From an uncultured Muribaculaceae bacterium (GTDB lineage Bacteria; Bacillota_I; Bacilli_A; RF39; UBA660), in NCBI GenBank assembly GCA_964370755.1, contig CAYJKL010000001.1, forward strand, positions 9,046 through 73,045: a stretch of DNA of 64,000 bases, in the 5' to 3' direction. This document shows, piece by piece, positions 25,915 through 51,222 of the stretch. The notes under the pieces were generated by a model, which worked only from the letters and a program-made list of their open reading frames with translations, searched no databases and was not told where the DNA came from. Positions within the stretch are counted from its first letter, which is position 1. Each line of letters opens with the position of its first letter. The position numbers and the translations under genes are program-made.

Positions 25915-26346
25915 TTACATGCCTGTTTCTTCGTCTTCGTCTATTAAAACTAAGTCAGCTAAATCATTGTCAGCTCTGTCATCAGTTTCTTCACCTTCAT
26001 AAAATATGTCATCTTCGATGGCAGGTTCTTCTTCAGTTTCTTCAATTTCCTCTTCGAAGTCATGCGCTTCTTCATCTTCTATTGTAACCGCTTGTAATTT
26101 ATGTTTAATTTGTAAGTCCCAGTATCCTTTGTCTAACATAATAAATTTTTTATTAGTTGATAAAAGTTCGAAAAATTCAGCTACATCATCTTTATAGCTT
26201 TCAAAATCAAGTTTTAGTAAATCACAAACCTTTTTGTAAAGGTTAATTAATTTTTCCTTTTTACCACTTTCTTGTAATATTAGATATGCTATTTCATCAT
26301 ATCCCATACACTCTAATTCGTCTAATGTTAAATCTTTAAGTTTCAT
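25915..26346 (-). CDS. rpoE: DNA-directed RNA polymerase delta subunit
   Basis: N-terminal HARE-HTH-like domain (MGYDEIAYLILQESGKKEKL...FIMLDKGYWDL) followed by a long Asp/Glu-rich tail, typical of Firmicute RpoE. Confidence 0.8.
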   Translation of the reverse strand: MKLKDLTLDELECMGYDEIAYLILQESGKKEKLINLYKKVCDLLKLDFESYKDDVAEFFELLSTNKKFIMLDKGYWDLQIKHKLQAVTIEDEEAHDFEEEIEETEEEPAIEDDIFYEGEETDDRADNDLADLVLIDEDEETGM

Positions 26347-26386: not shown

Positions 26387-26737
26387 CTATAATTTTATAT
26401 CATATAATTTAATTTCTATTTTCACTTCAATGTCATCAATTTTATATTTTAACACTACTTCATCATCTGTTGTCTTGGCACTACACTGCACATCAAACTT
26501 ACAATTACCTTCTTTTCCAAAATCAAATGAGCATGTTTTTTCATTAAAATTAATAATCATTTTGTATTCACTAGTTTTTCTAGTATAAGTATTTTTTACA
26601 TAGTTGTAATTATTATACTCATCATTTTGAAGAAAAGTTATTTCAGTATTGTATATAATACTTGCTTTTTCTTCTTTGAGACAAATTATTAGTTTGTCAT
26701 CATTAAAAAGCTTCCAGTCTATTTGGTCTTTCAACAT
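26387..26737 (-). CDS. Hypothetical small protein, possibly DUF1934/YwiB-like beta-barrel
   Basis: 116-aa ORF predicted rich in beta-strands, adjacent to rpoE. The assignment rests on size and context only. Confidence 0.3.
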   Translation of the reverse strand: MLKDQIDWKLFNDDKLIICLKEEKASIIYNTEITFLQNDEYNNYNYVKNTYTRKTSEYKMIINFNEKTCSFDFGKEGNCKFDVQCSAKTTDDEVVLKYKIDDIEVKIEIKLYDIKL

Positions 26738-27756: not shown

Positions 27757-29694
27757 ATGCGTTTTTTTAAACTTAGTTTTAAACTTTTTATATTTGGCTT
27801 TATCTCTTTTGTTGTTATTATGGTAGCTCTTTATGTCTATGCCTATTTAAGCCCTCAGATTGATTTAAAAACTCCTGGTAATCTATATTTATATGATAAT
27901 AATAGTAATTTAGTTTATCAAGGTTCTAAATCTAGTCAGTGGGTAGAAATAGATGATATTAGTGACTATTTGATAAATGCCACTATTTCTGTTGAAGATA
28001 AAAATTATTATAACCATTCTGGATTTGATTATATAAGGATTGCTAGTGCTGCACTTACTAATATTCAAACAAGAAGTATTACTCAGGGTGCTTCTACTAT
28101 AACACAGCAATATGCTAAAAATATGTACTTAGATTTTAGTCAGACTTTTGAAAGAAAAATAGAAGAGGCCTTTTTAACTCTAGAACTTGAAGTTCACTAT
28201 GAAAAAGATGAAATTTTAGAAGGTTATTTAAATACTATATATTATGGACAAGGTAATTATGGTATTGAAAATGCTAGTAACTTTTACTTTAATAAAGATT
28301 CTAAAGATTTAACGCTTGAAGAAGCTATAATTTTAGCTGGTATACCTAATAGACCAAATGATTATAATCCTGTATCAAATTATGAAGCATCTGTTAATAG
28401 AGCTCTTATCGTTGCTAAAACTATGCTTGATAATGGTTATATTAGTGAAACTGAGTTTGAAGGTTTATTTGAAAATGAACTTGAAATATACGCTAAGAAT
28501 ACTGAAAATGATTTACAAATGGTTATGTATTATCAAGATGCTGTTTTAGATGAACTTTATTCACTTAAAGAAATTCCTACTTCTTTAATAGATTCTGGAG
28601 GTCTTAAAGTATATACCACACTTGATTTAGATGCACAAAAGAATTTAGAAGAAAATATTCTTGAAAATTTACCTGATGATGAAATACAAGTATCTAGTGT
28701 TGTTGCTGACCCTAATACTGGTGCAGTACTAGCTTTAACAGGTGGTGTTGATTATTCTCTTAGTACATATAATAGAGCAACTACATCTACTAGGCAAGTA
28801 GGATCTGTTATGAAATCTTTTCTTTATTATGCTGCTCTTGAAAATAATATGACTATGGCTTCTACTTTTAAAAGTGAGCATACTGTATTTACACTATCTA
28901 ACGATCAAGTTTATTCACCTAGTAATTATAATAATAAATATGCTAATAAAGATATTACTATGGCAGCAGCTCTTGCTTTTTCTGATAATATATATGCAGT
29001 TAAAACCAATCTTTTTTTAGGCATTGATAAAATGATTGATGTTGCTAAAACTACTGGCATTGAAGGCAATTTAAATGAAGTTGCTTCACTTGCACTTGGG
29101 ACTAGCGAACTTAGTTTGATAGATATTGCTACTGGTTATACTACATTTGCTTCTGGTGGATATGAAAGAGATTTATATTTTATTGAAAGAGTTGAGGACA
29201 TGAATGGTAATGTACTTTACGAAAAGGAACATGTAAATAATCTTGTTCTTAACCCTAACTATACATATATACTTAATGAAATGCTTGCTTGTACTACAAG
29301 TAATAAATTTAGTGATTATACTGTAGCAACAGGCGTTTCTATAGCAAATGAATTAACAAATAAGTATGCACTTAAAAGTGGTACTACTGATACTGATAAC
29401 TGGCATATTGGTTATAACGAAGATTTACTAGTTGCTATATGGATGGGTTATGATGATAATAAAGAGACCAATTCAACAGTGAGCCAAAAAGAAAGAAATA
29501 TTTGGGCTAGTACTATGGAAGATATTTTGGCAAATAAAAACACCAACTGGTATGATAAACCTGATAATGTAGTTGGTGTTATGCTTGATTCTGTTACTGG
29601 AGAAGCTCCTACTGATAGTGATAATAGTACAATATTTTATTTTCTAAAAGGAACTGAACCTGGAGCAAGCTCTTATGTTAGTACACCTGATTAA
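27757..29694 (+). CDS. Class A penicillin-binding protein (glycosyltransferase + transpeptidase)
   Basis: GT51 motifs SVEDKNYYNHSGFD and GASTITQQYAKN. Transpeptidase motifs GSVMKSF (SxxK), SDN, KSGTT. N-terminal TM anchor. Confidence 0.9.
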   Translation: MRFFKLSFKLFIFGFISFVVIMVALYVYAYLSPQIDLKTPGNLYLYDNNSNLVYQGSKSSQWVEIDDISDYLINATISVEDKNYYNHSGFDYIRIASAALTNIQTRSITQGASTITQQYAKNMYLDFSQTFERKIEEAFLTLELEVHYEKDEILEGYLNTIYYGQGNYGIENASNFYFNKDSKDLTLEEAIILAGIPNRPNDYNPVSNYEASVNRALIVAKTMLDNGYISETEFEGLFENELEIYAKNTENDLQMVMYYQDAVLDELYSLKEIPTSLIDSGGLKVYTTLDLDAQKNLEENILENLPDDEIQVSSVVADPNTGAVLALTGGVDYSLSTYNRATTSTRQVGSVMKSFLYYAALENNMTMASTFKSEHTVFTLSNDQVYSPSNYNNKYANKDITMAAALAFSDNIYAVKTNLFLGIDKMIDVAKTTGIEGNLNEVASLALGTSELSLIDIATGYTTFASGGYERDLYFIERVEDMNGNVLYEKEHVNNLVLNPNYTYILNEMLACTTSNKFSDYTVATGVSIANELTNKYALKSGTTDTDNWHIGYNEDLLVAIWMGYDDNKETNSTVSQKERNIWASTMEDILANKNTNWYDKPDNVVGVMLDSVTGEAPTDSDNSTIFYFLKGTEPGASSYVSTPD

Positions 29695-30650
29695 TTAGGT
29701 ATATTTATTTTAAGAACAATTGATCCATTTTCTTCTGTTTCAGTAAATGTTACATTTGGGTATTTTGAGATAAATTCTTTTATCTCATTTTTTATGTTAC
29801 TATCACTTGCTGGGCTTTGTGGCACATCAAATTCATCTAACATTTCTATTTCTTCAACTGCTGGACTTATTTCTGGAGCAGTCACACTCATGTTTGCTGA
29901 TTCATCTTCTAAAAAGTTAAAAAATTTATTTGGTACTTTTTCAGTATTATTTGGATTATTAAACATATTTTGCTCCTCTCTTTTTATTACTTCTTCTTTA
30001 GGAATTATTTTAATTGGCTCTATTTTAGGCTTTTCTTCAACGCCTTGCATTTTTATAATTTCTTCTTCTAATCTTTTTACACTTAATCTTTCATTTAATA
30101 TTTTATCAAGTAGTGTTTTTTGATCTTCTATTTTTTTTACTTTTAGAAGTGTTCTAGCATGTCTTTCTGAAATTTTTTCAGCAAGTATTGCATCTTGCAC
30201 ACTTTCATCTAAGCTAAGAAGCCTTAGTTTATTAGAAATAGCACTTTGACTAATCCCCATTTTTCTAGCAAGTTCCTCTTGATTCATTAAACCTTTATCA
30301 AGTAAAGCTTTATAAGATTTTGCTTCTTCTATTGCTGTTAAACTTTTTCTTTGAACATTTTCAACAATTGCTACTTCTGCACTTTTTGTATCTGACATTT
30401 CTGTTATTATTGCTGGTACTGAAATAAGTCCCGCTATTTTCGCAGCACGATATCTTCTTTCTCCTGCTATAATTTCATATTTATCATTTATTCTTCTTAT
30501 TATAATTGGCTGTATAATACCATGCTCTTTAATTGACTGTGCAAGTTCAGATAATGAGGCATCATCAAAAGCTAATCGTGGTTGAAAACGATTAGGTAAT
30601 ATGTCCTCTATTGGTATTTGCATTACATTATTATTATTCATGCTAGCCAT
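29691..30650 (-). CDS. noc: ParB-family protein, Noc-like (nucleoid occlusion protein) by position and recognition-helix residues
   Basis: ParB N-domain PNRFQPR and CTP-binding box IIAGERRYRAAK. The HTH GISQSAISNKLRLLSL...ISERHARTL resembles B. subtilis Noc (GKGQSTIANKLRLLKL...ITERHARAL) rather than Spo0J (GKSRPHIANHLRLLTL...LSMGHGRTL); this comparison is from memory. The C-terminus ...IVLKINIPN resembles Noc ...IQLTIRIPK. The gene lies immediately downstream of rsmG, as noc does in Bacilli. Confidence 0.75.
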   Translation of the reverse strand: MASMNNNNVMQIPIEDILPNRFQPRLAFDDASLSELAQSIKEHGIIQPIIIRRINDKYEIIAGERRYRAAKIAGLISVPAIITEMSDTKSAEVAIVENVQRKSLTAIEEAKSYKALLDKGLMNQEELARKMGISQSAISNKLRLLSLDESVQDAILAEKISERHARTLLKVKKIEDQKTLLDKILNERLSVKRLEEEIIKMQGVEEKPKIEPIKIIPKEEVIKREEQNMFNNPNNTEKVPNKFFNFLEDESANMSVTAPEISPAVEEIEMLDEFDVPQSPASDSNIKNEIKEFISKYPNVTFTETEENGSIVLKINIPN

Positions 30651-36727: not shown

Positions 36728-37757
36728 TTTCCCTACCTTCTTTTTTATCTAATCTATTTTTGATTTTATTAGATTTTTCTTCTTTAATTATTTTATCTTT
36801 TTTTGGTTTTCTATCACCTAGATACCATTTAATTAAATACGTTTGAAGTGCTATAAATGCATAAGTTACTATCCAGTAAAAATGCAGTGCTGTTGGGAAA
36901 TTAATTGATGACACTAAAATTATTACTACCATAATGTTCATCATCATTTTTGTTTGTTTTGCTGATGCTTCATTCATTGTTGGAGCTTGACTCATAGAAT
37001 ATTTAAATGAGAAGAATGTTGAAAATGCTATAAGCACTAAAAGTACTATATAACTATAATTTCCATTTTGTATTCCTACAAGTGGAGTTGTTCCAAGGTT
37101 CCATCCAAATAATGTTTCTTCATATATTGCTGGTGTTCTATAAATTGCATCTAAGAATGCGAAGAATATAGGTAATTGTATAAATGCTAGCAGACATCCT
37201 GTTGCAGGATTTACTTTATATTTGCTATATACTCCCATCATTTCTTGACTTTTTGCCATTTGAGAATCTCTGTCAGTTCTGTTTTTATATTTTTCTTCGA
37301 TTTTTTTCATCTCTGGCATTGCTTTTTTCATATTTTGCGATTGTCTTGAGTTTTTTATTTGTACTGGTAATAAAATTATACGGATACATAAACCCACTAA
37401 CATTACCGCTACACCTAGTGATCCAACTAACTCGCCTACACTATTTATTGCCCATGCAGTTGGTTTTACAAATAAAAATTGCCATATTGAAGATGTCTCA
37501 TTTGAATTTACTGTAAAATCTTCACAAGTCGGTAGATCTTCTAGTTTATTTTCTAATTGATCTTCATATGTTTTATATATTGCATATACTTCACTGTCAC
37601 TATCTGGTTTACAAAGAATATCTTTTCTAAGCATTTGACCAGTTTTTTCATATTTTACTATTTCTTCATTTTTATCTAGTATATAATCATTTGACCCACA
37701 TCCACTTGAAAATAGTATTAATAAAAGCGCAGTTAGTCCTAAAATTTTTGTTTTCAT
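36693..37757 (-). CDS. yidC: Membrane protein insertase YidC/SpoIIIJ (lipoprotein form)
   Basis: Lipobox LFSSGC after the signal peptide. Has the 60-kDa inner-membrane-protein core (PLQIK-like LLPVQIKNSRSQ...) and a basic C-terminal tail. Confidence 0.9.
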   Translation of the reverse strand: MKTKILGLTALLLILFSSGCGSNDYILDKNEEIVKYEKTGQMLRKDILCKPDSDSEVYAIYKTYEDQLENKLEDLPTCEDFTVNSNETSSIWQFLFVKPTAWAINSVGELVGSLGVAVMLVGLCIRIILLPVQIKNSRQSQNMKKAMPEMKKIEEKYKNRTDRDSQMAKSQEMMGVYSKYKVNPATGCLLAFIQLPIFFAFLDAIYRTPAIYEETLFGWNLGTTPLVGIQNGNYSYIVLLVLIAFSTFFSFKYSMSQAPTMNEASAKQTKMMMNIMVVIILVSSINFPTALHFYWIVTYAFIALQTYLIKWYLGDRKPKKDKIIKEEKSNKIKNRLDKKEGRENGKISKRSKND

Positions 37758-38080
37758 TGTTCTCCTTTAATTAATTTAATTAATTCATTTTCTTTTTCAT
37801 TATATGACAGCTTTGCACCGTCACTATTTATCATTATAATATATTTACGGTTATTTTGAAAGTATATTTTGTTTTTATCTATAATATTTTTAAGTTGTCT
37901 TCTTATTTTATTACGGTAAACAGCGTTTCCTAATTTCTTTGATACTGCAAAACCGAATAATGGTATTTCAGAATTTGTTTTTAGGAAAAATATTTTAAAA
38001 TACTTACTTTTTGTTTTTTGACCCTTTTGTATAATGTTATTGTAGTCTTTTCTTTCTTTTACTATTTCTCTTTTTTTCAT
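37754..38080 (-). CDS. rnpA: Ribonuclease P protein component
   Basis: Basic 108-aa protein with the RNR motif region GNAVYRNKIRRQLK, downstream of rpmH. Confidence 0.85.
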   Translation of the reverse strand: MKKREIVKERKDYNNIIQKGQKTKSKYFKIFFLKTNSEIPLFGFAVSKKLGNAVYRNKIRRQLKNIIDKNKIYFQNNRKYIIMINSDGAKLSYNEKENELIKLIKGEQ

Positions 38081-38352: not shown

Positions 38353-39342
38353 TTATCTTTTTTTTCTAACATTTTTGTATTCTGTAATATATTTTTCATA
38401 ATAACTTGCGTATTTATCAAGTATAAATTTTTCTGCTTCTCTAGCAACATTTGTATTAGGTTGTTCTATATCGAATGCATGGAAACAACCTTCAAATATT
38501 GCAAATTCGACGGGAACATTACTTTCTTTTAATTTTTCAATGTAGTTTTTAGTTTCTATATAAAATGGATCTAGGGTTCCTATTAATGATATTGTTGGAG
38601 GAAGATCACATAAATTATTTTCTTTGCTTACTGATGCATAACTCGGAATTTCAAGATTATTATTATATAAGTTACTTAAATATGCTTCCCAACCTAATCT
38701 ATTAGAAGCGGTTCCCCACATAGGACTTTCTATATACCTATTTACATCGTATGGTTGTGTACAATCTATCATTGGATATATTGGAAGTTGAAATGCAATA
38801 TCAATATCTTCCTTATTTCTTACTAACAATGATGTTGCAGTTGTTAAACCTCCTCCGGCACTTGGACCTCCAACTATAAAACGATCTTTGTATATTCCAA
38901 TATCACCATGGTTATTTTTAGCCCATAATAAACTATCATAGCAGTCATTTATTGCTGCTGGATAAGGTTCTTCGAAAGCTTTTCTATATTTTGGGGAAAC
39001 TATTATACATCTTTTTTTATTAATGAACTTTTCAATACAATCCTCATACATCTCTGGATTTCCGGTGATATAACCACCTCCATGTATATACAAAAATAGA
39101 GGAATAGGCGTTTCTACATTCTCAGGTTTATATATTTTTAATTTCAAATCGTTATTAGTTTGGGTAACTATACTTTCTTCTGTAATTTTTATATTTTCTC
39201 TTTTTTTTGATTTTGAAAAATATTTTAAATATAAATTATGAGCTACAACAAAGTTCTTATTTGACAATAACTTAGCAATCAACATATACTTATCATAATT
39301 TGATTTTAAATCTCTGTGTAACATATTTTTCGTAACTTTCAT
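38353..39342 (-). CDS. Alpha/beta hydrolase fold-3 esterase/lipase (HSL/arylacetamide deacetylase-like)
   Basis: Oxyanion motif YIHGGGY, nucleophile elbow GGPSAGG (GxSxG), and C-terminal Asp/His regions (LIGTLDPF, GCFHAF). Confidence 0.8.
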   Translation of the reverse strand: MKVTKNMLHRDLKSNYDKYMLIAKLLSNKNFVVAHNLYLKYFSKSKKRENIKITEESIVTQTNNDLKLKIYKPENVETPIPLFLYIHGGGYITGNPEMYEDCIEKFINKKRCIIVSPKYRKAFEEPYPAAINDCYDSLLWAKNNHGDIGIYKDRFIVGGPSAGGGLTTATSLLVRNKEDIDIAFQLPIYPMIDCTQPYDVNRYIESPMWGTASNRLGWEAYLSNLYNNNLEIPSYASVSKENNLCDLPPTISLIGTLDPFYIETKNYIEKLKESNVPVEFAIFEGCFHAFDIEQPNTNVAREAEKFILDKYASYYEKYITEYKNVRKKR

Positions 39343-39552
39343 TTTTTCACCTACAAATTTGTTATATTATATTAATATAATATACTAAAGTCAAGATTAC
39401 CTTTCCTGAAAAATAAATATCTGCTGTGTCAAATTAATATTTTTCTAATAGATTAATACACTTTTAATTATTATAAACATGGTTAAAATCATGTTTTTTT
39501 ATATTTACTATAATCTAAGTATATTAATTAAGTTTGGATTAAAGACAAATTT

Positions 39553-40275
39553 TTACTCTATATAATCTTTAATATTGTATCCATCTTTAAATTCAATAAA
39601 TTTTGATATTCTTGGATGGATTGCTCTTTTTGGACAATTGTATATACAATTCATACATAGTATACAATTTAGTCCAAATTTTGGTTTATTTTTCATTTTT
39701 ATATTTTTTTGTGGACAACTTTTAATACATTTACCACATTTTATACAACTTTTATTTGCTTTTAACTCTAGTCCAAATAACTTTACAAAAAAAGATTCTA
39801 ATAAATGTACTATGATTAGTGATTTTGATAATAAAGATATTTTTATATTAGTTTTTTTGTTATTAATTATATCACTGTAAATTTGATTTATTTCCTCAAC
39901 TGATTTTTCAATTATTTCTTTTCCATACTTTTTATCAAATTTTTTTACTATAGTTAGTGGCATAGCTAGTACTTTATATGTAGAAATATCTATCTTTTCT
40001 TTTTTTGCTTTGTTAATTAGATGTATTCCTGCTGCGCTATTAATTTTTTCTTTGTTACACCCTACAGCTATTATACTTAATTTTTTTATGTTAGTAACTT
40101 TCTTAGATAATTTTAACGGAATTCTAAAAGCATGAATAGAGCTCATTATGATTAAGTGGTCACAATTTACTTCTTCTTCTATGTTAATTATTTCACAATT
40201 TAGTTTTTTTGATAGAATTGTTGCTAAAAATTTTGTGTTACCTGTTGGGCTAAATGATAATATTTGATATTTCAT
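39553..40275 (-). CDS. Flavodoxin-like protein fused to a 2x[4Fe-4S] ferredoxin domain (EFR1-family-like)
   Basis: N-terminal flavodoxin-type loop ILSFSPTGNT. Two cluster motifs: CIKCGKCIKSCP and CILCMNCIYNCP. Confidence 0.65.
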   Translation of the reverse strand: MKYQILSFSPTGNTKFLATILSKKLNCEIINIEEEVNCDHLIIMSSIHAFRIPLKLSKKVTNIKKLSIIAVGCNKEKINSAAGIHLINKAKKEKIDISTYKVLAMPLTIVKKFDKKYGKEIIEKSVEEINQIYSDIINNKKTNIKISLLSKSLIIVHLLESFFVKLFGLELKANKSCIKCGKCIKSCPQKNIKMKNKPKFGLNCILCMNCIYNCPKRAIHPRISKFIEFKDGYNIKDYIE

Positions 40276-40279
40276 GTTA

Positions 40280-40636
40280 CTAACTTGGTATTATTTCAAT
40301 CCAGTATCCATCCGGATCTGATATAAAATATATTCCCATCTCTTTATTCTCATAACAAATGCAGTCCATCTTTTTATGTTTATTATAACTTTCTTCAAAA
40401 TTATCAGTTTTTAATGCTAGATGAATTTCATTATCTCCTAGATTATATTTTTCTTTTCTATCATGTAAATAAGTTAACTCGATTGTAAAATCTGTTTTTT
40501 TGTCTGTTAAATATACTAAAGTAAAATTTTCTTTTTTATATTCTTTCTTTATTTCTAAATCTAGTGCTTCTTGATAAAATTTTATACTTTTTTCTAAATT
40601 TAAAACATTAAAGTTAAAATGTGCTAGTTTATACAT
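40280..40636 (-). CDS. VOC-family protein (glyoxalase I/lactoylglutathione lyase-like)
   Basis: 118 aa. N-terminus is LAHFNFNVLNLEKSIKFYQEALDLE; C-terminus is FISDPDGYWIEIIP. Confidence 0.8.
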   Translation of the reverse strand: MYKLAHFNFNVLNLEKSIKFYQEALDLEIKKEYKKENFTLVYLTDKKTDFTIELTYLHDRKEKYNLGDNEIHLALKTDNFEESYNKHKKMDCICYENKEMGIYFISDPDGYWIEIIPS

Positions 40637-40699
40637 TGTTTTTCTCCTTCAAAATAATTATATCAACTTATAATTAAAAATACTAGATATGATTTTGCT

Positions 40700-40960
40700 G
40701 TTTTTAATGTTGATAACTTTATGTGTATTTTTTTAGTAACACATTTTTAAACATAGTTATTAACATTTTACATTTCGATTTTTCTTTTAAATTCGACAAA
40801 TTTCGACTTTATTCACAAATTAACACCTATTAACATTTCTTAAAACAACACATAACTTATAAATGTTGGTTTGTTAATTGCAATTTGTTGATAAATGTTA
40901 ATAAGTATTTTTTTCTTGTAAATAAAAGCAATTTTGTGTTGATAAGTATGTGGAAAAAAT
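40700..40960. promoter_or_regulatory. oriC upstream module / dnaA promoter region: cluster of DnaA boxes (TTATCCACA-like)
   Basis: TGTTGATAA (complement of TTATCAACA) at 40708-40716, 40886-40894 and 40937-40945. TTATTCACA at 40809-40817. TGTGGAAAA (complement of TTTTCCACA) at 40949-40957. Weaker TTATTAACA-type boxes at 40757-40765 and 40896-40904. The gene-strand switch occurs here. Confidence 0.7.
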
Positions 40961-41039
40961 GTTATTATTATTTTAGACTTTATTTTTTGGTGAAAATGAT
41001 ATACAATTTTAAGTAAGTTGCAAGTAATGGGGTGAGGAT

Positions 41040-42386
41040 TTGAAAACTAATGAACTATTTAATAAATTTCTAAATGAGCTGGCTAATCAGTTAACTCCTA
41101 ATACTTATAGTATTTGGTTTTCAAAACTTGAGCTTGTTTCTATAACTGATGATGTTGTTACTATTAAAGTTCCAATGAATGTACATAAGACGATGCTGAG
41201 TGATAACTATTATAATGTTATTAACTCAACTTTTTATTCTATAACAGGTAAAGATTATACTTTTAAATTTGTTTTAGAAGAAGAACTTAATGATGTTACT
41301 AAAGTTATTGATACACCTAGTGCTGAAGAAGAACATGATTGGCATACTAATCTAAATACTGATCACGTATTTAATAATTATGTAGTTGGCGATACTAATA
41401 GACTTGCATTTATTGCGTCCAAGGCCGTTGCTGAAGCGCCTGGCACTATCCATAATCCTCTCTTTTTATACGGAAGAAGTGGTTTAGGTAAAACACATTT
41501 AATGCATGCTATAGGAAATTATGTTACTGAAAATACTAATAAAAAAGTTTTGTATACCACAAGTAATGACTTTATGACTGATTTTACTGGTATAGCTAAC
41601 ATTGATAAGGGTATTAATAGTATAAACTACGCTAATGAATTTAAGAATAAATATCGTAATGTTGATGTACTAATGATTGATGATATTCAGTTTTTAGTAG
41701 GAGCTGAGCGGACACAACAAGAGTTTTTTCATACATTTAATGCACTTCATCAAATGAATAAACAAATTATTATTACTAGTGATAGATCACCTGATGATTT
41801 AAAGAAAATTGAGGAACGCCTCAGAAGCCGCTTTAAATGGGGACTTCCTGTTGATATTTATCCACCAGATTTTAATCTAAGGTGTGAAATTATTAAAGCA
41901 AAAATCAAGAATAATATTATTGGTAAGAAAGTTGATAGTGATGTTATTGAATATATTGCTAATAGTTGTCCTAATGATGTTAGACATATAGAAGGTACTA
42001 TTAATAGATTAATGGCTTATACAGCTATGATGATTCCTACTAAGATTAATCTAGATTTTGCTATTGAAGCATTAAAAGATTATGTTAATAACAATGTTTA
42101 TTCTGATAATTCTATTTCAAATATACAACAAGTTGTTGCAGAATATTATAAAATTACTGTTGATGATATGAAAAGTAAGAAGAGAAATAGTAAAATTATT
42201 AGACCAAGACATGTTGCTATGTATTTATGTAGAAATGAAACTAGTGAAAATTTAGCAAAAATTGGTCTTGACTTTGGAGGACGTGATCATTCTACTGTTA
42301 TTGCTGCTTGTGAAAAGGTAAAACATGACTTAGAAAGTGATAAAGAACTTGATAAAGTGTTGAAAGAAATCAAAGAAAAGTTATAA
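41040..42386 (+). CDS. dnaA: Chromosomal replication initiator protein DnaA
   Basis: TTG start after GGTGAGGA. Walker A GRSGLGKTHL, box VII, and the C-terminal DnaA signature RPRHVAMYLCRNETSENLAKIGLDFGGRDHSTV. Confidence 0.97.
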   Translation: MKTNELFNKFLNELANQLTPNTYSIWFSKLELVSITDDVVTIKVPMNVHKTMLSDNYYNVINSTFYSITGKDYTFKFVLEEELNDVTKVIDTPSAEEEHDWHTNLNTDHVFNNYVVGDTNRLAFIASKAVAEAPGTIHNPLFLYGRSGLGKTHLMHAIGNYVTENTNKKVLYTTSNDFMTDFTGIANIDKGINSINYANEFKNKYRNVDVLMIDDIQFLVGAERTQQEFFHTFNALHQMNKQIIITSDRSPDDLKKIEERLRSRFKWGLPVDIYPPDFNLRCEIIKAKIKNNIIGKKVDSDVIEYIANSCPNDVRHIEGTINRLMAYTAMMIPTKINLDFAIEALKDYVNNNVYSDNSISNIQQVVAEYYKITVDDMKSKKRNSKIIRPRHVAMYLCRNETSENLAKIGLDFGGRDHSTVIAACEKVKHDLESDKELDKVLKEIKEKL

Positions 42387-42388
42387 AA

Positions 42389-42499
42389 TGTTGATAACTT
42401 TTAGTAACTAACACCTGTATCTTAGGGAAATTTATAAAGTTATTAACATTATCAACATTGTTATTATAAATAATATATAAAAAGAAAGAAGGTAAAAAA
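42389..42499. promoter_or_regulatory. oriC downstream module (dnaA-dnaN spacer): DnaA boxes followed by an AT-only stretch (candidate unwinding region)
   Basis: TGTTGATAA at 42389-42397. Two abutting head-to-tail boxes, TTATTAACA (42440-42448) and TTATCAACA (42449-42457), are followed by TTGTTATTATAAATAATATATAAAAAG. Confidence 0.6.
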
Positions 42500-43618
42500 A
42501 TGAAATTTTCAATTGAAAAAAATATTATATTAGATGCTCTAGTAAATGTTACTAAAGCATTATCTCAAAAAGTTACTATTCCTGTACTTAATGGAATAAA
42601 ATTTGAACTAACTAAAGAAGGATTAACTCTTCTTGCAAGTGACTCAGAACTTACTATTAAAATAAGTGTTGATGAAAAGGAAATAAAAAATATAGAAAAT
42701 ACTGGGATTTCTATTATTCAAAGTAAATATATTCTTGATATTATTAGAAAAATGCCAAGTGATGTTATTAACTTTGATGCTGATGATACTAAGGTTAAAA
42801 TTTATTCTGATACAAATGAATTTAGTTTAAATTGTTATGATGTAAATGATTATCCTAACTTTAAACTTGAAACTAGTAAGAATAATTTTAAAATTACTTC
42901 TGGTGAATTTAAAAAGATAATTGATCAAACATCATATGCTATGAGTACTCAAGAGCTTAGACCTCTTTTAACTGGACTTAATATAGCGCTTTCTAATGGT
43001 AATTTAGAATGTATTGCAACTGATTCTTATAGACTTGCTAAGAAAACAATGGCCGTTTCTTCTAATTTATCTGAAGATATTAATATTGTAGTTCCTGGAA
43101 GAAGTATTATTGAATTTAATAAAATTATTGATGATAGTGATGAAGAAATAGAAATAAATGTATTTAATAATAAAATAATGTTCGTTTATAAAAATATTTT
43201 TGTTCAAAGTAACCTTTTAAATGGTACTTATCCACAAACTTCTCACTTTATTCCAGATGATTTTTCTTATATGATTAATCTTGATTTAAGAAGTTTTTAC
43301 GACGCTATTGATAGAGCTTCATTACTTGCTTCTAATAAAGATAAAAATATTATTAAACTTAATATTAAAGAAAAAGAAATGTTAATAACTAGTACTGCTT
43401 CAGAAATTGGTAAAACTGAAGAGAAAATTATTATTGAAAGTAATAAAATAGATAAAATAGAAATTTCTATTAGTTCTAAGTATTTAATGGATGCTTTAAA
43501 AGTTATTAAAGATGATAATATTTTACTTCTTCTTAATAGTGATGATAAGCCAGTTATTATTAAATCTGTAAATGACGAGAATTTTACTTCGTTGATTTTA
43601 CCTATTAAAACGTTTTAA
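42500..43618 (+). CDS. dnaN: DNA polymerase III beta sliding clamp
   Basis: 372 aa. MKFSIEKNIILDALVNVTKALS..., three-domain length, canonical position after dnaA. Confidence 0.95.
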   Translation: MKFSIEKNIILDALVNVTKALSQKVTIPVLNGIKFELTKEGLTLLASDSELTIKISVDEKEIKNIENTGISIIQSKYILDIIRKMPSDVINFDADDTKVKIYSDTNEFSLNCYDVNDYPNFKLETSKNNFKITSGEFKKIIDQTSYAMSTQELRPLLTGLNIALSNGNLECIATDSYRLAKKTMAVSSNLSEDINIVVPGRSIIEFNKIIDDSDEEIEINVFNNKIMFVYKNIFVQSNLLNGTYPQTSHFIPDDFSYMINLDLRSFYDAIDRASLLASNKDKNIIKLNIKEKEMLITSTASEIGKTEEKIIIESNKIDKIEISISSKYLMDALKVIKDDNILLLLNSDDKPVIIKSVNDENFTSLILPIKTF

Positions 43619-43689
43619 TAACAAAATGTGACAATTTATTTAAGATTTTTATGTTAAAGTAGCATAAAAATTTTTTTATGGGGGAATTT

Positions 43690-44133
43690 ATGCAAAATAA
43701 TATAATTGATTTTGATACTTATGCTGTTATACCAGGGGTTAATGGTTCAAAAATTGTTAATAAGTTTAAAGTTTTTTTTGACTATAGAAACGTTAGGTCT
43801 ATTGTTAATTCTAGTTGTAAGTATTATGGAAGTAGTTTGGATGGCAGAATTAGTGGATCTAAAGAGATGCTTGGTATTTCGTATAAGGTTCCTATTATTG
43901 TTAGCGAAAACTTCAATTTGATATTTTTTCCAACGTCTTCTCCTAGGAGTGATGATTGTGTCTGGATAAATTTATGTGCTATTTTAGAATATAAGAGTAA
44001 ATCTAAAAATTTGGTGTTGGTAACTTTTAAAAATGGTAAAAAAGTGGTCTTAAATATTAGTTTCGGAGTGCTTGAGAAACAAATTTTGAGAGCTTCTCGT
44101 TTGGAAAGTATTTTTTTAGCAAGAAAAAGATGA
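43690..44133 (+). CDS. comK: ComK-family protein (competence transcription factor-like)
   Basis: SCKYYGSSLDGRISGSKEMLGISYKVPIIVSENFNLIFFPTSSPRSDDCVWINL...VTFKNGKKVVLNISFGVLEKQILRASRL aligns by eye with B. subtilis ComK SCRFFGSSYAGRKAGTYEVTKISHKPPIMV...IFLFPTLSSTRPQCGWI...VTFSNGKTMELPISYNSFENQVYRTAWL (recalled from memory). Start at 43690 after GGGGGA. Confidence 0.75.
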   Translation: MQNNIIDFDTYAVIPGVNGSKIVNKFKVFFDYRNVRSIVNSSCKYYGSSLDGRISGSKEMLGISYKVPIIVSENFNLIFFPTSSPRSDDCVWINLCAILEYKSKSKNLVLVTFKNGKKVVLNISFGVLEKQILRASRLESIFLARKR

Positions 44134-47253: not shown

Positions 47254-47265
47254 GAGGTGCTTATA

Positions 47266-49743
47266 ATGGATAAATTAGAACAACAAAATATAGTTAATGA
47301 AATGGAAAAATCGTTTCTTGAATATTCAATGAGTGTTATTATTTCAAGAGCACTTCCAGACTTAAGAGATGGTTTAAAACCAGTTCATAGAAGAATACTT
47401 TATGCGATGCATGAAGATGGTTTAACACCAGATAAAATGTTTAAAAAAAGTGCAACTACTGTAGGTAATGTACTTGGTAGATATCATCCACATGGTGATT
47501 CATCAGTATATGACTCAATGGTTAGAATGGCACAAGATTTTAGTTATAGATATCCTTTAGTTGAAGGACATGGTAACTTTGGTTCAATAGATGGTGATGG
47601 AGCTGCGGCATATCGTTATACAGAGGCAAGATTACAAAAATTATCTTTAGAACTTCTTAGAGATATTAATAAGGATACTGTTGATTTTGAAGCAAACTTT
47701 GATAATTCTAGAAAAGAACCTAAAGTATTACCTTCTAGATATCCAAATATACTAGTAAATGGTACTATGGGTATTGCAGTTGGTATGGCTACTAACATTC
47801 CTCCACATAATTTAGGAGAAGTAATTGATGGTTGTGTAGCTTTTATTGATAATAATGAAATAACTATTCCAGAACTTATGGAATACGTAAAAGGTCCTGA
47901 TTTTCCAACATCTGCTTCAATACTTGGTAATTCTGGTATAAGAAAAGCTTATGAAACTGGAAGAGGTTCAATTACTATTAGAGGTAAAGCTGAAATTATT
48001 GAGAAAAATAATAAATCTCAAATAATTATTACTGAACTTCCTTATCAAGTTAATAAGAAAAATTTCCAAGAAAAGATTGGACAACTTGTAAGAGATAAAA
48101 TAATTGATGGAATAGCAGATTTAAATGATGAATCTACGCTTAAAAATGGTATTAAAGTAGTTGTAACTCTTAAAAGAGATGCAAATGCTAATGTAGTACT
48201 TAATAACCTTTATAAACATACACAATTACAAACATCTTATGGTATTAATTTACTTATGTTAGATGAAGGTGAACCAAAAACACTAAATTTAAAAGAAATT
48301 ATAGAAAAATATACAAATTATCAGAAAGTTGTTATTGTTAGAAGAACTAAATTTGAACTAGCTAAGGCTGAGCGTCGTGTTCACATCTTAGAAGGTTTAA
48401 AAATAGCTCTTGATAATATAGATGAAGTTATTAAACTTATTAGGGCTGCTGCTACAGATGAAGAAGCTAAAAATGGATTAATGACTAAGTTTGGATTATC
48501 TGAAATACAAGCTGAAGCAATACTTGAAATGAAACTTAGAAGACTTACGGGTCTTGAAAAATCTAAGATTGAAGATGAACTTGCTGAGCTTATGAAGGAA
48601 ATAGATCGTTTAAGAGGTATTCTTGCTGATGAAGCTAAAGTTTTAGCTATTATTAAAGAAGAATTACTAGAAATTAAACATAAATATAATGATGAAAGAA
48701 GAACTAATATAGATATGACGGCTATAGAATTCATTGAAGATGAGTCGCTTATACCTGAAGAAAATATAATTGTAATGCTTACAAAAGCTGGTTATATTAA
48801 ACGTACACTTCCTGGAGAGTTTAAAACTCAAAACAGAGGTGGTGTTGGTATTAAAGGTATGACTACTAATGAAGAAGATATAGTTGAGCAACTTATTAAC
48901 TTATCAACACATGATTATATATTATTCTTTACAAATAAAGGAAAAGTATATAGACTTAAGGGATATGAAATACCAGAATTTGGTAGAACTGCTAAAGGAA
49001 TTCCTATTGTTAATTTACTACAACTTGAAAATGATGAAAAAATTAGTTCTGTTATACAAATTAAGAATGATGAAGCTAAAAAGTATTTATTATTTTCTAC
49101 TAAAACAGGTGTAGTTAAAAAGACTTTAATAGAAGAATTTAGTAATATTAGAACTACTGGTAAGATATCTATTAATTTAAGAGAAAATGATGAGCTTATT
49201 GCTGTTAGAAAAACTTCTGGCGAAGATATGATTCTTTTAGGGTCTAATGCAGGTCGTATGGTTAAATTCCTAGAAAGTGAACTAAGACCTATGGGAAGAA
49301 CTGCATCAGGCGTTAGAGGTATTAATTTAGGCGAAGCTGAATGTGTTTGTGCTGAAGTTGTGTCTGAAGATGATCTTATCTTGTTATTAACAGAAAAAGG
49401 ATATGGTAAGAAGACATTTGTAAGTGAGTTTAGACAAACTAAACGTGGTTCTAAAGGTGTTAAAGCACTTAATATTACTGATAAAAATGGTGCATTAATA
49501 TCTGTTAAAGTATTAAATGATGAAAATGAATTAGTACTTATGACAAATGTTGGTTTGACAATTAGAATGCCTCTTGAACAGATTTCTACATTAGGTAGAG
49601 TTACTCAAGGGTTAAGATTAATTAATTTAAAAGATAATCAACAAGTATCAAGTGCTGTATTACTAAAAATTGAACAAGAAGAAATAGAAACTGATTCAGA
49701 AACAAATGAATCAGAAGAAAATGAAGAAATTAGCGAAAGCTAG
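47266..49743 (+). CDS. gyrA: DNA gyrase subunit A
   Basis: [25 protein letters not shown] region [17 protein letters not shown], catalytic [12 protein letters not shown]-terminal beta-pinwheel repeats and an acidic tail. Start at 47266 after AGGAGGTG. Confidence 0.97.
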
Positions 49744-49793
49744 TTTTTTTTTTACTTGCTCTGCTCTATTGGTTTTCAATTTATATTAATATA

Positions 49794-50017
49794 TTATGTA
49801 AACTGAATATTTCCCGGGAAATAAAATTGTGAATAAATATAACGTTATTAACATAAAAATATTTCCCGGGAAATATTTTTATATGTTATGTAACCCAAAA
49901 TATTTCCCAAATTATAAAATTTTGTATAAATTTGTATGTTATGTTAACAAATTATTTCCCGGGAAATAATTTCGTTGCAACCAATTATTATGTAAACTAA
50001 TTATTTTCCAAAAATAA
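49794..50017. repeat. Tandem array of five ~41-53 bp units, each TTATGTAAAC-like + 4-5 nt + Noc-binding-site (NBS) palindrome TATTTCCCGGGAAATA
   Basis: Perfect 16-mers at 49808-49823, 49860-49875 and 49953-49968. A half-site-only copy TATTTCCCaaattata lies at 49901-49916, and a decayed copy TATTTTCCAAAAATAA at 50002-50017. TTATGTAAAC-type motifs are at 49794, 49886 (TTATGTAACC), 49939 (TTATGTTAAC), 49988 and 50081, with TTATTAACAT at 49845. The core equals the B. subtilis NBS consensus ATTTCCCGGGAAAT. Confidence 0.75.
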
Positions 50018-50328
50018 GTTAAGTTCTCTTATCAATATTTAATGATATATACCTGGCAAAATTTGTGTTTTTAAATAATATTATGTAAACCAAATTCTTA
50101 AGCTAGCTAATGCTCTTTTGTTTATTCTTATTTTTTTTAAAGTAGCTTAATATATTTCATTATTTATTTATAATTTGAATGATAGATATGTATTATAATT
50201 TCAATTATTCGTTTTTAAATTTATTATATATTTCTATTATAATATATTTTTTAAATTATTAGTTATATATATTAACAGATTGATCTTTCGTATTTATTAT
50301 AGTATATATCCTTAATTTTTACGAACAA

Positions 50329-51023
50329 TGTTCCACGTGGAACATTGTTTTTTTGTTGTATGTGTTATATATTGATATATTTTATGTATATTGATTCAAA
50401 TTTTCTTGGCTAGTAGTTATATAATTCATTAAAATATATTCAATGTTCCACGTGGAACATTGAGTGTTGATAACTTATACATATATTATTTGAGTTAAAT
50501 ATATATTTAATGTTGTTTTATTTTATTTATTTGTTAATAAAATCACCATTTTTGTAACTTTATATACTTTTGATGCGTTTGATGTTCCACGTGGAACATC
50601 ATGTTTATAATGCATTTTTTTAGTCTGTTATTTTAATTATAATATTTCAGTGTTAATAAATCCTATCTATTTTTTTTATTACGATTACAATGTTCCACGT
50701 GGAACATTGGTTATTTTTGTTGGTAACTTTCTCAATATAATTGAGTGTTATTATATTTTTTTGCCTAATTTACGCGGAAAATTCAATGTTCCACGTGGAA
50801 CATCAGCTTGTTGATAACTTATTTTCATGTTCTTTTTTTGATATATTAAATTAATGTTAATAAGTTTCCTATAAAATTTAAATAGTATTTTTTTCTTTAT
50901 ATGTTCCACGTGGAACATTAAGTGTTGATAAGTTTTATAACGAGAATGTTTTATTATAGATTATTTTGTGTTAATAATATAGTTAAGTATTTAGTATTTC
51001 AAAACAATGTTCCACGTGGAACA
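50329..51023. repeat. Array of seven identical, perfectly symmetric parS (ParB/Spo0J-binding centromere) sites
   Basis: TGTTCCACGTGGAACA at 50329-50344, 50444-50459, 50583-50598, 50691-50706, 50787-50802, 50902-50917 and 51008-51023. All copies share the 18-bp palindrome ATGTTCCACGTGGAACAT, and the first extends to 26 bp. This matches the parS consensus TGTTNCACGTGAAACA. The spacers are AT-rich and only loosely related to one another. Confidence 0.8.
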
Positions 51024-51097
51024 TTGTTAATAATTATCGAATTACTGCACTTTATGTGTATATTTTCTTTATTTTATGGCGATTTTATGTTTTTTTC

Positions 51098-51126
51098 TTG
51101 TTTTTCAATGTTAATTATGATATAAT
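51098..51126 (+). promoter_or_regulatory. Putative extended -10 sigma-A promoter for the SRP RNA gene (TTGTTT - 17 nt - TGaTATAAT)
   Basis: Read directly from the sequence. The -10 TATAAT at 51121-51126 is preceded by TG at 51118-51119. The predicted start is near G51133. Confidence 0.5.
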
Positions 51127-51132
51127 TTATAC

Positions 51133-51210
51133 GTGCAACAAATATATTGTAATCTGGTCAGGATCGGAAGATAGCAGCCACGTCAATCCCTATTTGTGTG
51201 CACTTTTTTT
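51133..51210 (+). ncRNA. ffs: Small (4.5S-type) signal recognition particle RNA
   Basis: CTGGTCAGGATCGGAAGATAGCAGCCACG matches the universally conserved SRP RNA domain IV (E. coli CCAGGUCAGGUCCGGAAGGAAGCAGCCAAGG) including the GGAA tetraloop. The closing stem is GTGCAACAAATA...TATTTGTGTGCAC, followed by T7. It sits next to tadA/dnaX, as scr does in B. subtilis. Confidence 0.65.
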
Positions 51211-51222
51211 ATAGGAGAATTT

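Follow-up and report, generated by a model that had tools for sequence, protein, structure and literature searches.

What kind of element is formed by seven identical palindromes packed into 700 bp of intergenic DNA near a bacterial replication origin, and which proteins read it? Here we address this question for a stretch of 64,000 nucleotides (GenBank assembly GCA_964370755.1, contig CAYJKL010000001.1, positions 9,046 to 73,045; hereafter the window, meaning the whole 64-kb stretch), which covers the origin of a low-GC representative of the Bacilli that apparently forms spores and is known solely from metagenome assemblies. Judged by their sequence, the palindromes, located in the spacer between gyrA and the small signal recognition particle RNA gene ffs, are a chromosomal origin-proximal parS cluster, an ordinary centromere array with an unusual neighbour. 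The reading that we consider probable is that of a chromosomal parS loading zone for a canonical ParB, beside a set of Noc-binding sites (NBS) for a Noc-like clamp.

The parS array in the gyrA-ffs spacer

The 18-bp palindrome ATGTTCCACGTGGAACAT is the full form of all seven sites, which are 100% identical and lie, each as an exact match, at 50328..50345 (site 1, with the extended palindrome CAATG...CATTG), 50443..50460 (site 2), 50582..50599 (site 3), 50690..50707 (site 4), 50786..50803 (site 5), 50901..50918 (site 6) and 51007..51024 (site 7, ~100 bp upstream of ffs). Five of the seven copies stretch to a 22-bp palindrome, either CAATGTTCCACGTGGAACATTG or TGATGTTCCACGTGGAACATCA. The core 16-mer TGTTCCACGTGGAACA has its seven exact copies in the window at 50329, 50444, 50583, 50691, 50787, 50902 and 51008, spaced by 115, 139, 108, 96, 115 and 106 bp; an earlier note, made from the DNA letters alone, had reported these palindromes and spacings, and all of them proved exact. 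No further match to the 16-mer with up to three mismatches occurs in the rest of the window, and 100 dinucleotide-preserving shuffles of the window gave 0 matches. The 16-mer fits the pattern TGTTNCACGTGAAACA, its sole departure from the Bacillus subtilis consensus being the one that gives full symmetry, and it is the same as the Myxococcus xanthus consensus TGTTCCACGTGGAACG at 15 of 16 positions.

The spacer (49744..51124) measures 1,381 bp, from the stop of gyrA at 49743 (gyrA, 47257..49743, + strand) to ffs (51125..51219, + strand; Rfam RF00169, 56.6 bits), which is followed by tadA and dnaX, and it contains both the parS and the NBS clusters. Its description in the earlier note as a gene-free, AT-rich interval holds: no credible open reading frame (ORF) was found in the spacer, and its GC content is 21.2% (18.1% when the palindromes are left out) vs 26.8% for the window. 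The identity of the sites with the parS consensus and their proximity to the origin are likewise upheld, the distance being measured at 9.3-10 kb to the right of the dnaA start (41040) and of the minimum of the cumulative GC skew (near 40 kb). Two other readings of the spacer were tried and rejected: a small RNA, the only Rfam match being ffs, and a CRISPR (clustered regularly interspaced short palindromic repeats) array, the repeat here being an 18-bp perfect palindrome and the spacers varying from 78 to 121 bp.

The DNA between the sites has diverged as far as chance allows, with a pairwise identity of 0.563 between inter-parS stretches vs 0.552 when shuffled, and Tandem Repeats Finder detected no repeat on the array because its units are too diverged. 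A comparison with related genomes, which the earlier note had proposed, places parS arrays in the same syntenic position. The three closest relatives were retrieved via GyrA (82-89% identity) and hence were unselected for parS; their spacers contain two NBS and six parS, two NBS and four parS, and eight parS-like sites with no NBS (L205), respectively. When species whose GyrA is 86-89% identical are compared, substantial blocks of the spacer (at least 16 nt) are shared solely at the parS and NBS palindromes and a few bases beside them, all other shared blocks being short A/T-rich 11-13-mers. Because the stretches between sites are shuffled-like, the palindromes are identical, and the palindromes alone are substantially shared between species, selection acts on the palindromes alone. 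Of the two forces invoked in the earlier note, selection on the sites is thereby confirmed, and gene conversion is not needed, since purifying selection is enough. Copy number turns over through tandem duplication, the close relatives and the window having four, six, seven or eight parS sites.

Palindromes under selection might also be maintained as structures or as sites for some other factor, for instance as bidirectional terminator or insulator hairpins, as a repetitive extragenic palindrome (REP)-like element, or as non-ParB operators. Four of the seven sites do score as terminator-like stem-loops with T-runs, terminator-like sites in the scanned region number 5 vs 0.3 expected, and the position between two highly expressed genes would suit such a role. 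We nevertheless regard this explanation as very unlikely: the palindrome coincides exactly with the parS consensus found across bacteria, dozens of phyla have arrays of this 16-mer next to rsmG-parAB, and the compensatory changes expected of hairpins occur neither in the seven copies nor in 118 sites of relatives, known N positions aside. Every parS copy within the 64 kb sits inside the array, in disagreement with a REP-like dispersed palindrome and with the generic dispersed repeat that the earlier note had named as an outcome that would sink its claim.

Arrays of this kind are widespread. With one genome taken per species, a scan for pairs of parS sites separated by 80-110 bp found at least 119 such loci, and among the matches listed at least 32 loci have five to ten parS sites per 8 kb. 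The matches listed include Actinomycetota, Bacteroidota, Acidobacteriota, Planctomycetota, Spirochaetota, phyla of the candidate phyla radiation (CPR), Clostridia and Bacilli, and in most of these phyla the array adjoins rsmG-parAB. In at least 21 species of low-GC Bacilli represented by metagenome-assembled genomes (MAGs), with GyrA 59-70% identical to that of the window, the gyrA-tadA spacer contains parS in every case, with 2-10 sites. In the CPR (Moranbacteria, Moraniibacteriota, Paceibacterota), 7-10 parS sites fall within 0.4-1.5 kb (L097, 1004-2180; L029, 6414-7896; L072, 1473-1827), and in L097 the array is directly upstream of dnaA. At another locus (L207, 3213-3550) two adjacent 160-bp parS units are almost identical; by its sequence this pair indicates a very recent tandem duplication, contrasting with the fully diverged units of the window. 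Two contigs are probably mis-binned: L064, labelled Muribaculaceae, has its genes in the order of Bacilli and an array in which NBS and parS interleave, and L035, labelled as the archaeon Nitrosopumilus, has 63% GC together with rsmG, a parS array and parB.

The earlier note had taken the tight array to be plasmid-like and in contrast to well-studied chromosomes. The frequency of such loci across many phyla contradicts this, as does the cluster of 22 parS sites within 3 kb of the M. xanthus chromosome (PMC3899335); moreover, the window array has no parAB operon beside it and no mobile replicon around it, as a plasmid-type centromere would have, the spacer gave no match when searched against 72,556 plasmids, and its flanks are conserved core genes. 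An integrated plasmid was rejected on the absence of a plasmid match and the core-gene synteny of the flanks. The broader possibility of a relic, of foreign DNA or of an artefact (a centromere in decay that has no binder, a plasmid centromere that has integrated, or a fault of the assembly) draws on the lack of any visible cognate ParB or ParA in the window and on the origin of the sequence from a MAG. It appears extremely unlikely, as all seven sites are perfect amid randomised spacers, at least 24 independent assemblies have arrays at this locus, the non-identity of the units speaks against repeat collapse or expansion, and the order of the flanking core genes is conserved.

NBS sites and an orphan Noc-like protein

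The same spacer contains three perfect copies of the NBS palindrome TATTTCCCGGGAAATA, as exact matches at 49808..49823, 49860..49875 and 49953..49968, which is 376-521 bp upstream of the first parS. The earlier note had passed over them. All three fit ATTTCCCGGGAAAT, and the NBS sequence is as given in PMC7383237; beyond these three, no copy with up to two mismatches occurs in the 64-kb window. Among them, a degenerate NBS half-site, TATTTCCCAAATTATA (49901..49916, repeat family D2), is a decayed fourth NBS repeat unit. The proximity of the two site types is a feature of the clade: among the matches listed in the scan described above, an NBS lies less than 400 bp from a parS at 9 of 21 clade loci vs 1 of 98 other loci. 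In a closed 1.5-Mb Bacilli MAG (L017, OZ006970.1), positions 2260-2960 are a homogeneous 125-bp tandem repeat of 5-6 units, in which every unit pairs one NBS, AATTATTTCCCGGGAAATAATT, with one parS 41 bp away.

Other motifs accompany the sites. A third motif, ATATTATGTAAAC(T/C)NAAT, is mixed with the NBS cluster (49791-49808, 49985-50002 and 50078-50095, with a variant at 49937), and TTATGTAAAC has three copies in the window, all within the area of the NBS cluster. Within the parS array, the tentative DnaA-box variant TTATCAACA lies 5 nt past site 2 (50465..50473, - strand) and again at 50809-50817 and 50923-50931, all three copies being 4-6 nt after a parS, and in the relative L204 it directly abuts two parS sites. 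A DnaA-box role for it in the array was set aside, as the 9-mer is enriched across the window (22 found vs 2 expected) and is inconsistent in the arrays of relatives.

As to proteins, the earlier note had reported neither a Spo0J-type parB nor a parA/soj in the window. The absence of parA stands, but a ParB-family gene was overlooked: an orphan Noc-like ParB-family CTPase is encoded at 29691..30650 (- strand), directly after rsmG and with no parA beside it. Because this Noc-type protein and the NBS were found, the question of who binds what has changed. The protein has the Pfam domains ParB_N (2e-35) and HTH_ParB (5e-30), and its best relatives in the PDB are Noc proteins (192 bits), with B. 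subtilis Spo0J behind them at 169 bits. It scores 269.8 bits with the NCBIfam Noc model TIGR04285, under the cutoff of 315, in an alignment that covers profile positions 1-202 of 255. The GERR and ENxQR boxes are intact in its sequence, and no other protein of the window has a GERR box.

The two ends of the protein depart from Noc. Some 9 residues precede ParB_N and an upstream extension of the ORF is impossible, so the N-terminal amphipathic helix of Noc is missing, as it is in all Noc-like orthologues. Towards the C-terminus, AlphaFold predicts a disordered linker containing PNKFFNFLED and then a small alpha-beta-beta domain. Within the linker (residues ~240-275), PNKFFNFLED..ANM is near-invariant in the family, EEIEMLDDF is found in most members, and a short helix is predicted at FFNF. 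The PNKFFNFLED segment may be a relocated membrane-targeting or partner-binding peptide that replaces the N-terminal Noc helix.

Four residues choose between parS and NBS, at positions 173, 179, 184 and 201 in Caulobacter numbering (Jalal et al., PMC7383237). ParB has R-T-A-G, with R173 and G201 invariant in extant ParBs, and in Noc the set is Q-K-K-R; recognition of A1 falls to Q173 and that of C6 to R201, given a lysine at 179 or 184, and one lysine at either of these is enough for NBS specificity in the Caulobacter scaffold (PMC7383237). The window protein has Q173/K179/S184/R201, i.e. Q-K-S-R, three of the four residues of the Noc set, and Q-K-(S/T/N)-R is found in 35 sampled orthologues. 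The combinations QKSR, QKTR and QKNR are not listed in the accessible part of the supplement of that study (PMC7383237). As a control, the same residue columns were read in ParB-family genes beside parS arrays at loci of other phyla: 45 of 46 have R173...G201, the remaining one has R...S, and Q...R occurs solely in Noc-like paralogues. From the Q-K-S-R pattern and this control, the Noc-like protein is predicted to bind NBS rather than parS. The subclade of the window protein also differs at a further, otherwise conserved DNA-contact residue, K171, which is replaced by I/L/V (Ile in the window protein).

Similar paralogues and sites are found elsewhere. Three loci of Clostridia-type MAGs (L063, L065 and L085) have two ParB paralogues after rsmG, one with Q-K-(K/R)-R and one with R...G, and Noc-type specificity would thus extend beyond the Bacilli. 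Single NBS palindromes were found at seven metagenome loci (L137, at 9717; L142, at 9694; L133, L147, L175, L178 and L183); in L137 and L142 the NBS lies upstream of the noc-like gene at a distance of no more than ~300 bp, a placement suggestive of autoregulation or of nucleation at the gene's own promoter.

The reader of parS and the genes around the origin

If the Noc-like protein reads NBS rather than parS, the seven parS sites call for another reader, and the surroundings of the noc-like gene bear on where it is encoded. A scan of metagenomes with the Noc-like family gave 80 loci. In its distant members, which have K171, the gene order is rsmG - noc-like (QKxR) - parA - parB (RxxG), and at three distant K171 loci the parAB pair is ~8 kb off and inverted. 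In the window subclade, with a hydrophobic residue at 171, the order is always rsmG - noc-like - penicillin-binding protein gene. Because distant relatives keep both in tandem, the lineage ancestrally had a Noc-like protein and a canonical ParB. At a reference locus from a different lineage (P0240), the order is noc-like-parA-parB-DUF951-...-ychF-rpsF-ssb-rpsR-divIC-tilS-ftsH; the window has tilS and ftsH but is without parA, parB, ychF, rpsF, ssb and rpsR. Since rpsF, ssb and rpsR are normally essential genes and yet are absent from the region, the block from parA to rpsR was most likely relocated, not lost, and parAB may have travelled along. The perfect conservation of both site types, for its part, argues that both are read. 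We think it likely that the genome encodes a canonical ParB at another locus.

Several observations weigh against a parS loading zone served by its own ParB. At the ~19 metagenome and 4 assembly loci of the subclade, no parA or parB lies within 10 kb of the noc-like gene. No gene for a canonical ParB (R173/G201), ParA or SMC is found in the 64-kb window, in any frame of which the KGGxGK[ST] Walker A motif of parA/soj is also missing. A protein database searched with a canonical-ParB profile (A2, from related loci) gave none linked to subclade contigs among the best 120 of 8,000 matches, a result that speaks neither for nor against. In addition, with K171 lost, the specificity of the Noc-like protein may depart from the published rules.

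In a rival reading, the departure of soj-spo0J from the noc locus left the subclade with one ParB-family clamp, the paralogue derived from Noc (G-[ILV]-S-Q...K...[S/T/N]...R), which would read both NBS and parS and have the entire spacer to itself for loading. The 64 kb do contain a single ParB-family gene, the subclade loci lack a nearby parAB, and the change of K171 to a hydrophobic residue together with the loss of K184 amounts to a remodelled DNA interface; NBS and parS are physically coupled, even inside one amplified unit (L017), and dual-specificity variants exist in the mutational landscape (PMC7383237). In the same deep mutational scan, however, parS binders invariably have R173, and the dual-specificity variants mostly have T/S at 201, not R (PMC7383237). 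Q173 reads A1 and R201 reads C6, and parS differs from NBS at both positions; the spacer of L205 has eight parS sites with no NBS to accompany them; and the absence of rpsF, ssb and rpsR as well points to relocation of the parAB block rather than its loss. On balance, a single protein for both sites is improbable.

A related proposal, which we regard as possible but doubtful, makes NBS and parS an obligate composite centromere. Here the Noc-derived CTPase, without its N-terminal helix, K171 and K184 and uncoupled from soj-spo0J, would no longer carry out dispersed nucleoid occlusion and would have turned into an organiser of the origin domain beside Spo0J or, in the extreme form, in its place, which would make it a natural ParB-family protein servicing both parS and NBS.

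Of the parS loading zone beside an NBS set, the analysis establishes the sequence, place and conservation of both types of site, the selection on them, and the residue pattern of the protein. A second ParB is deduced, and the steps from the binding of sites through the loading of clamps to the recruitment of SMC are extrapolated from what is known of the family (PMC7333895, PMC8429893). The array would have originated by tandem duplication of a unit of ~100-140 bp and is maintained by selection on the sites alone. A dimer of canonical ParB/Spo0J, most likely encoded outside the 64-kb window, would bind each 16-bp parS, bind CTP, close into a sliding clamp and spread over nearby kilobases, and seven sites in 700 bp would raise the loading rate and the local ParB concentration. 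The resulting origin-domain complex would recruit SMC-condensin and, if a ParA exists, drive origin segregation. At the three NBS the Noc-like clamp would be loaded, again onto this DNA, and the gyrA-ffs spacer would thus receive two paralogous CTPase clamps on one composite landing pad.

The oriC region (40650..42500, + strand) includes dnaA (41040-42386), flanked by boxes of the TTATCAACA type at 40708, 40886 and 40937 on the upstream side and at 42389 and 42449 on the downstream side. To the right follow dnaN, a comK-family gene, recF, gyrB, gyrA, the spacer, ffs, tadA, dnaX, ybaB and recR, and then holB, yaaT/PSP1, a methyltransferase gene, pth, mfd and spoVT. To the left are rnpA, yidC, jag, mnmE, mnmG, rsmG, the ParB-family gene and, convergent with it, a gene for a class A penicillin-binding protein. 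The ComK-family gene (43678-44133, + strand; Pfam ComK, 1e-36) is located between dnaN and recF, as it is in the relatives L102, L137, L138, L141, L204 and L205. Between rnpA (37754-38080) and dnaA, genes for an alpha/beta hydrolase, a 4Fe-4S protein and a glyoxalase-family protein (38353-40636, - strand) look like an insertion right at oriC; in L205 rpmH faces dnaA directly, and in L204 a single 82-aa ORF intervenes. Two conserved ORFs with no Pfam match (25915-26346 and 26387-26737, - strand), which have prfA on one side and a pseudouridine synthase gene on the other, keep their synteny in L001.

Comparison with known systems

The array by itself is one more case of a known phenomenon, dense parS arrays being common in uncultured diversity. 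What may be of import is that two paralogous recognition sites, parS and NBS, are coupled in a conserved way within a single module near the origin, alongside an orphan, remodelled Noc-like protein; the composite NBS-parS coupling, the clade-wide gyrA-ffs location and the orphan helix-less paralogue appear undescribed in the literature searched. With both fresh and ancient duplications visible, the clade is also natural material for the field's question of what makes parS sites cluster and how the number of sites changes in evolution.

The best-known chromosomal parallel is that of M. xanthus, in which 22-24 parS sites are clustered in ~3 kb, ~4 kb upstream of parAB, and ParB binds the consensus in vitro (PMC3899335). 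Like that cluster, the window array is dense, intergenic and origin-proximal, with about one site per 110-140 bp and a near-identical consensus; it differs in having seven sites, no parAB in 64 kb, a location in the gyrA-ffs spacer and adjoining NBS. It shares with the Spo0J-parS/SMC system of B. subtilis its occurrence in a Firmicute, the parS consensus and the proximity to the origin. The ~8-10 parS sites of B. subtilis, however, are single sites spread over the origin region, several of them inside genes, whereas those of the window form one compact intergenic array and the gene for the cognate ParB most likely lies outside the window. According to reviews, genomes have from 1 up to 20-23 parS sites, and ParB-parS-SMC systems without ParA exist in Streptococcus pneumoniae and Staphylococcus aureus, which the window, without parA, resembles in this respect (PMC7333895). 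With plasmid centromeres (F sopC, P1 parS, the OB sites of RK2) the array shares iterated sites in less than 1 kb; it is unlike them in lacking adjacent parAB and a mobile context, in its variable period of 96-139 bp, and in having the chromosomal parS consensus.

The NBS side of the module is to be compared with the Noc-NBS system of B. subtilis and S. aureus, with which it shares an identical 16-bp NBS, a gene after rsmG, Noc structures as the closest relatives of the protein, and the residues Q173, K179 and R201. The window protein differs from Noc in the missing N-terminal helix, K171 and K184, in its different C-terminal region with PNKFFNFLED, and in scoring below the TIGR04285 cutoff, and its combination of Q-K-S-R with the loss of K171 makes it a natural test of the rules of ParB-to-Noc specificity. 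The distribution of sites may differ as well: in B. subtilis and S. aureus, NBS are scattered through the half to two-thirds of the chromosome nearest the origin (PMC5540599), whereas within the 64 kb seen here all of them are in one spacer beside parS, near oriC. As Noc function is currently explained by NBS dispersed on the chromosome arms, NBS clustered by the centromere would imply a different job for this paralogue.

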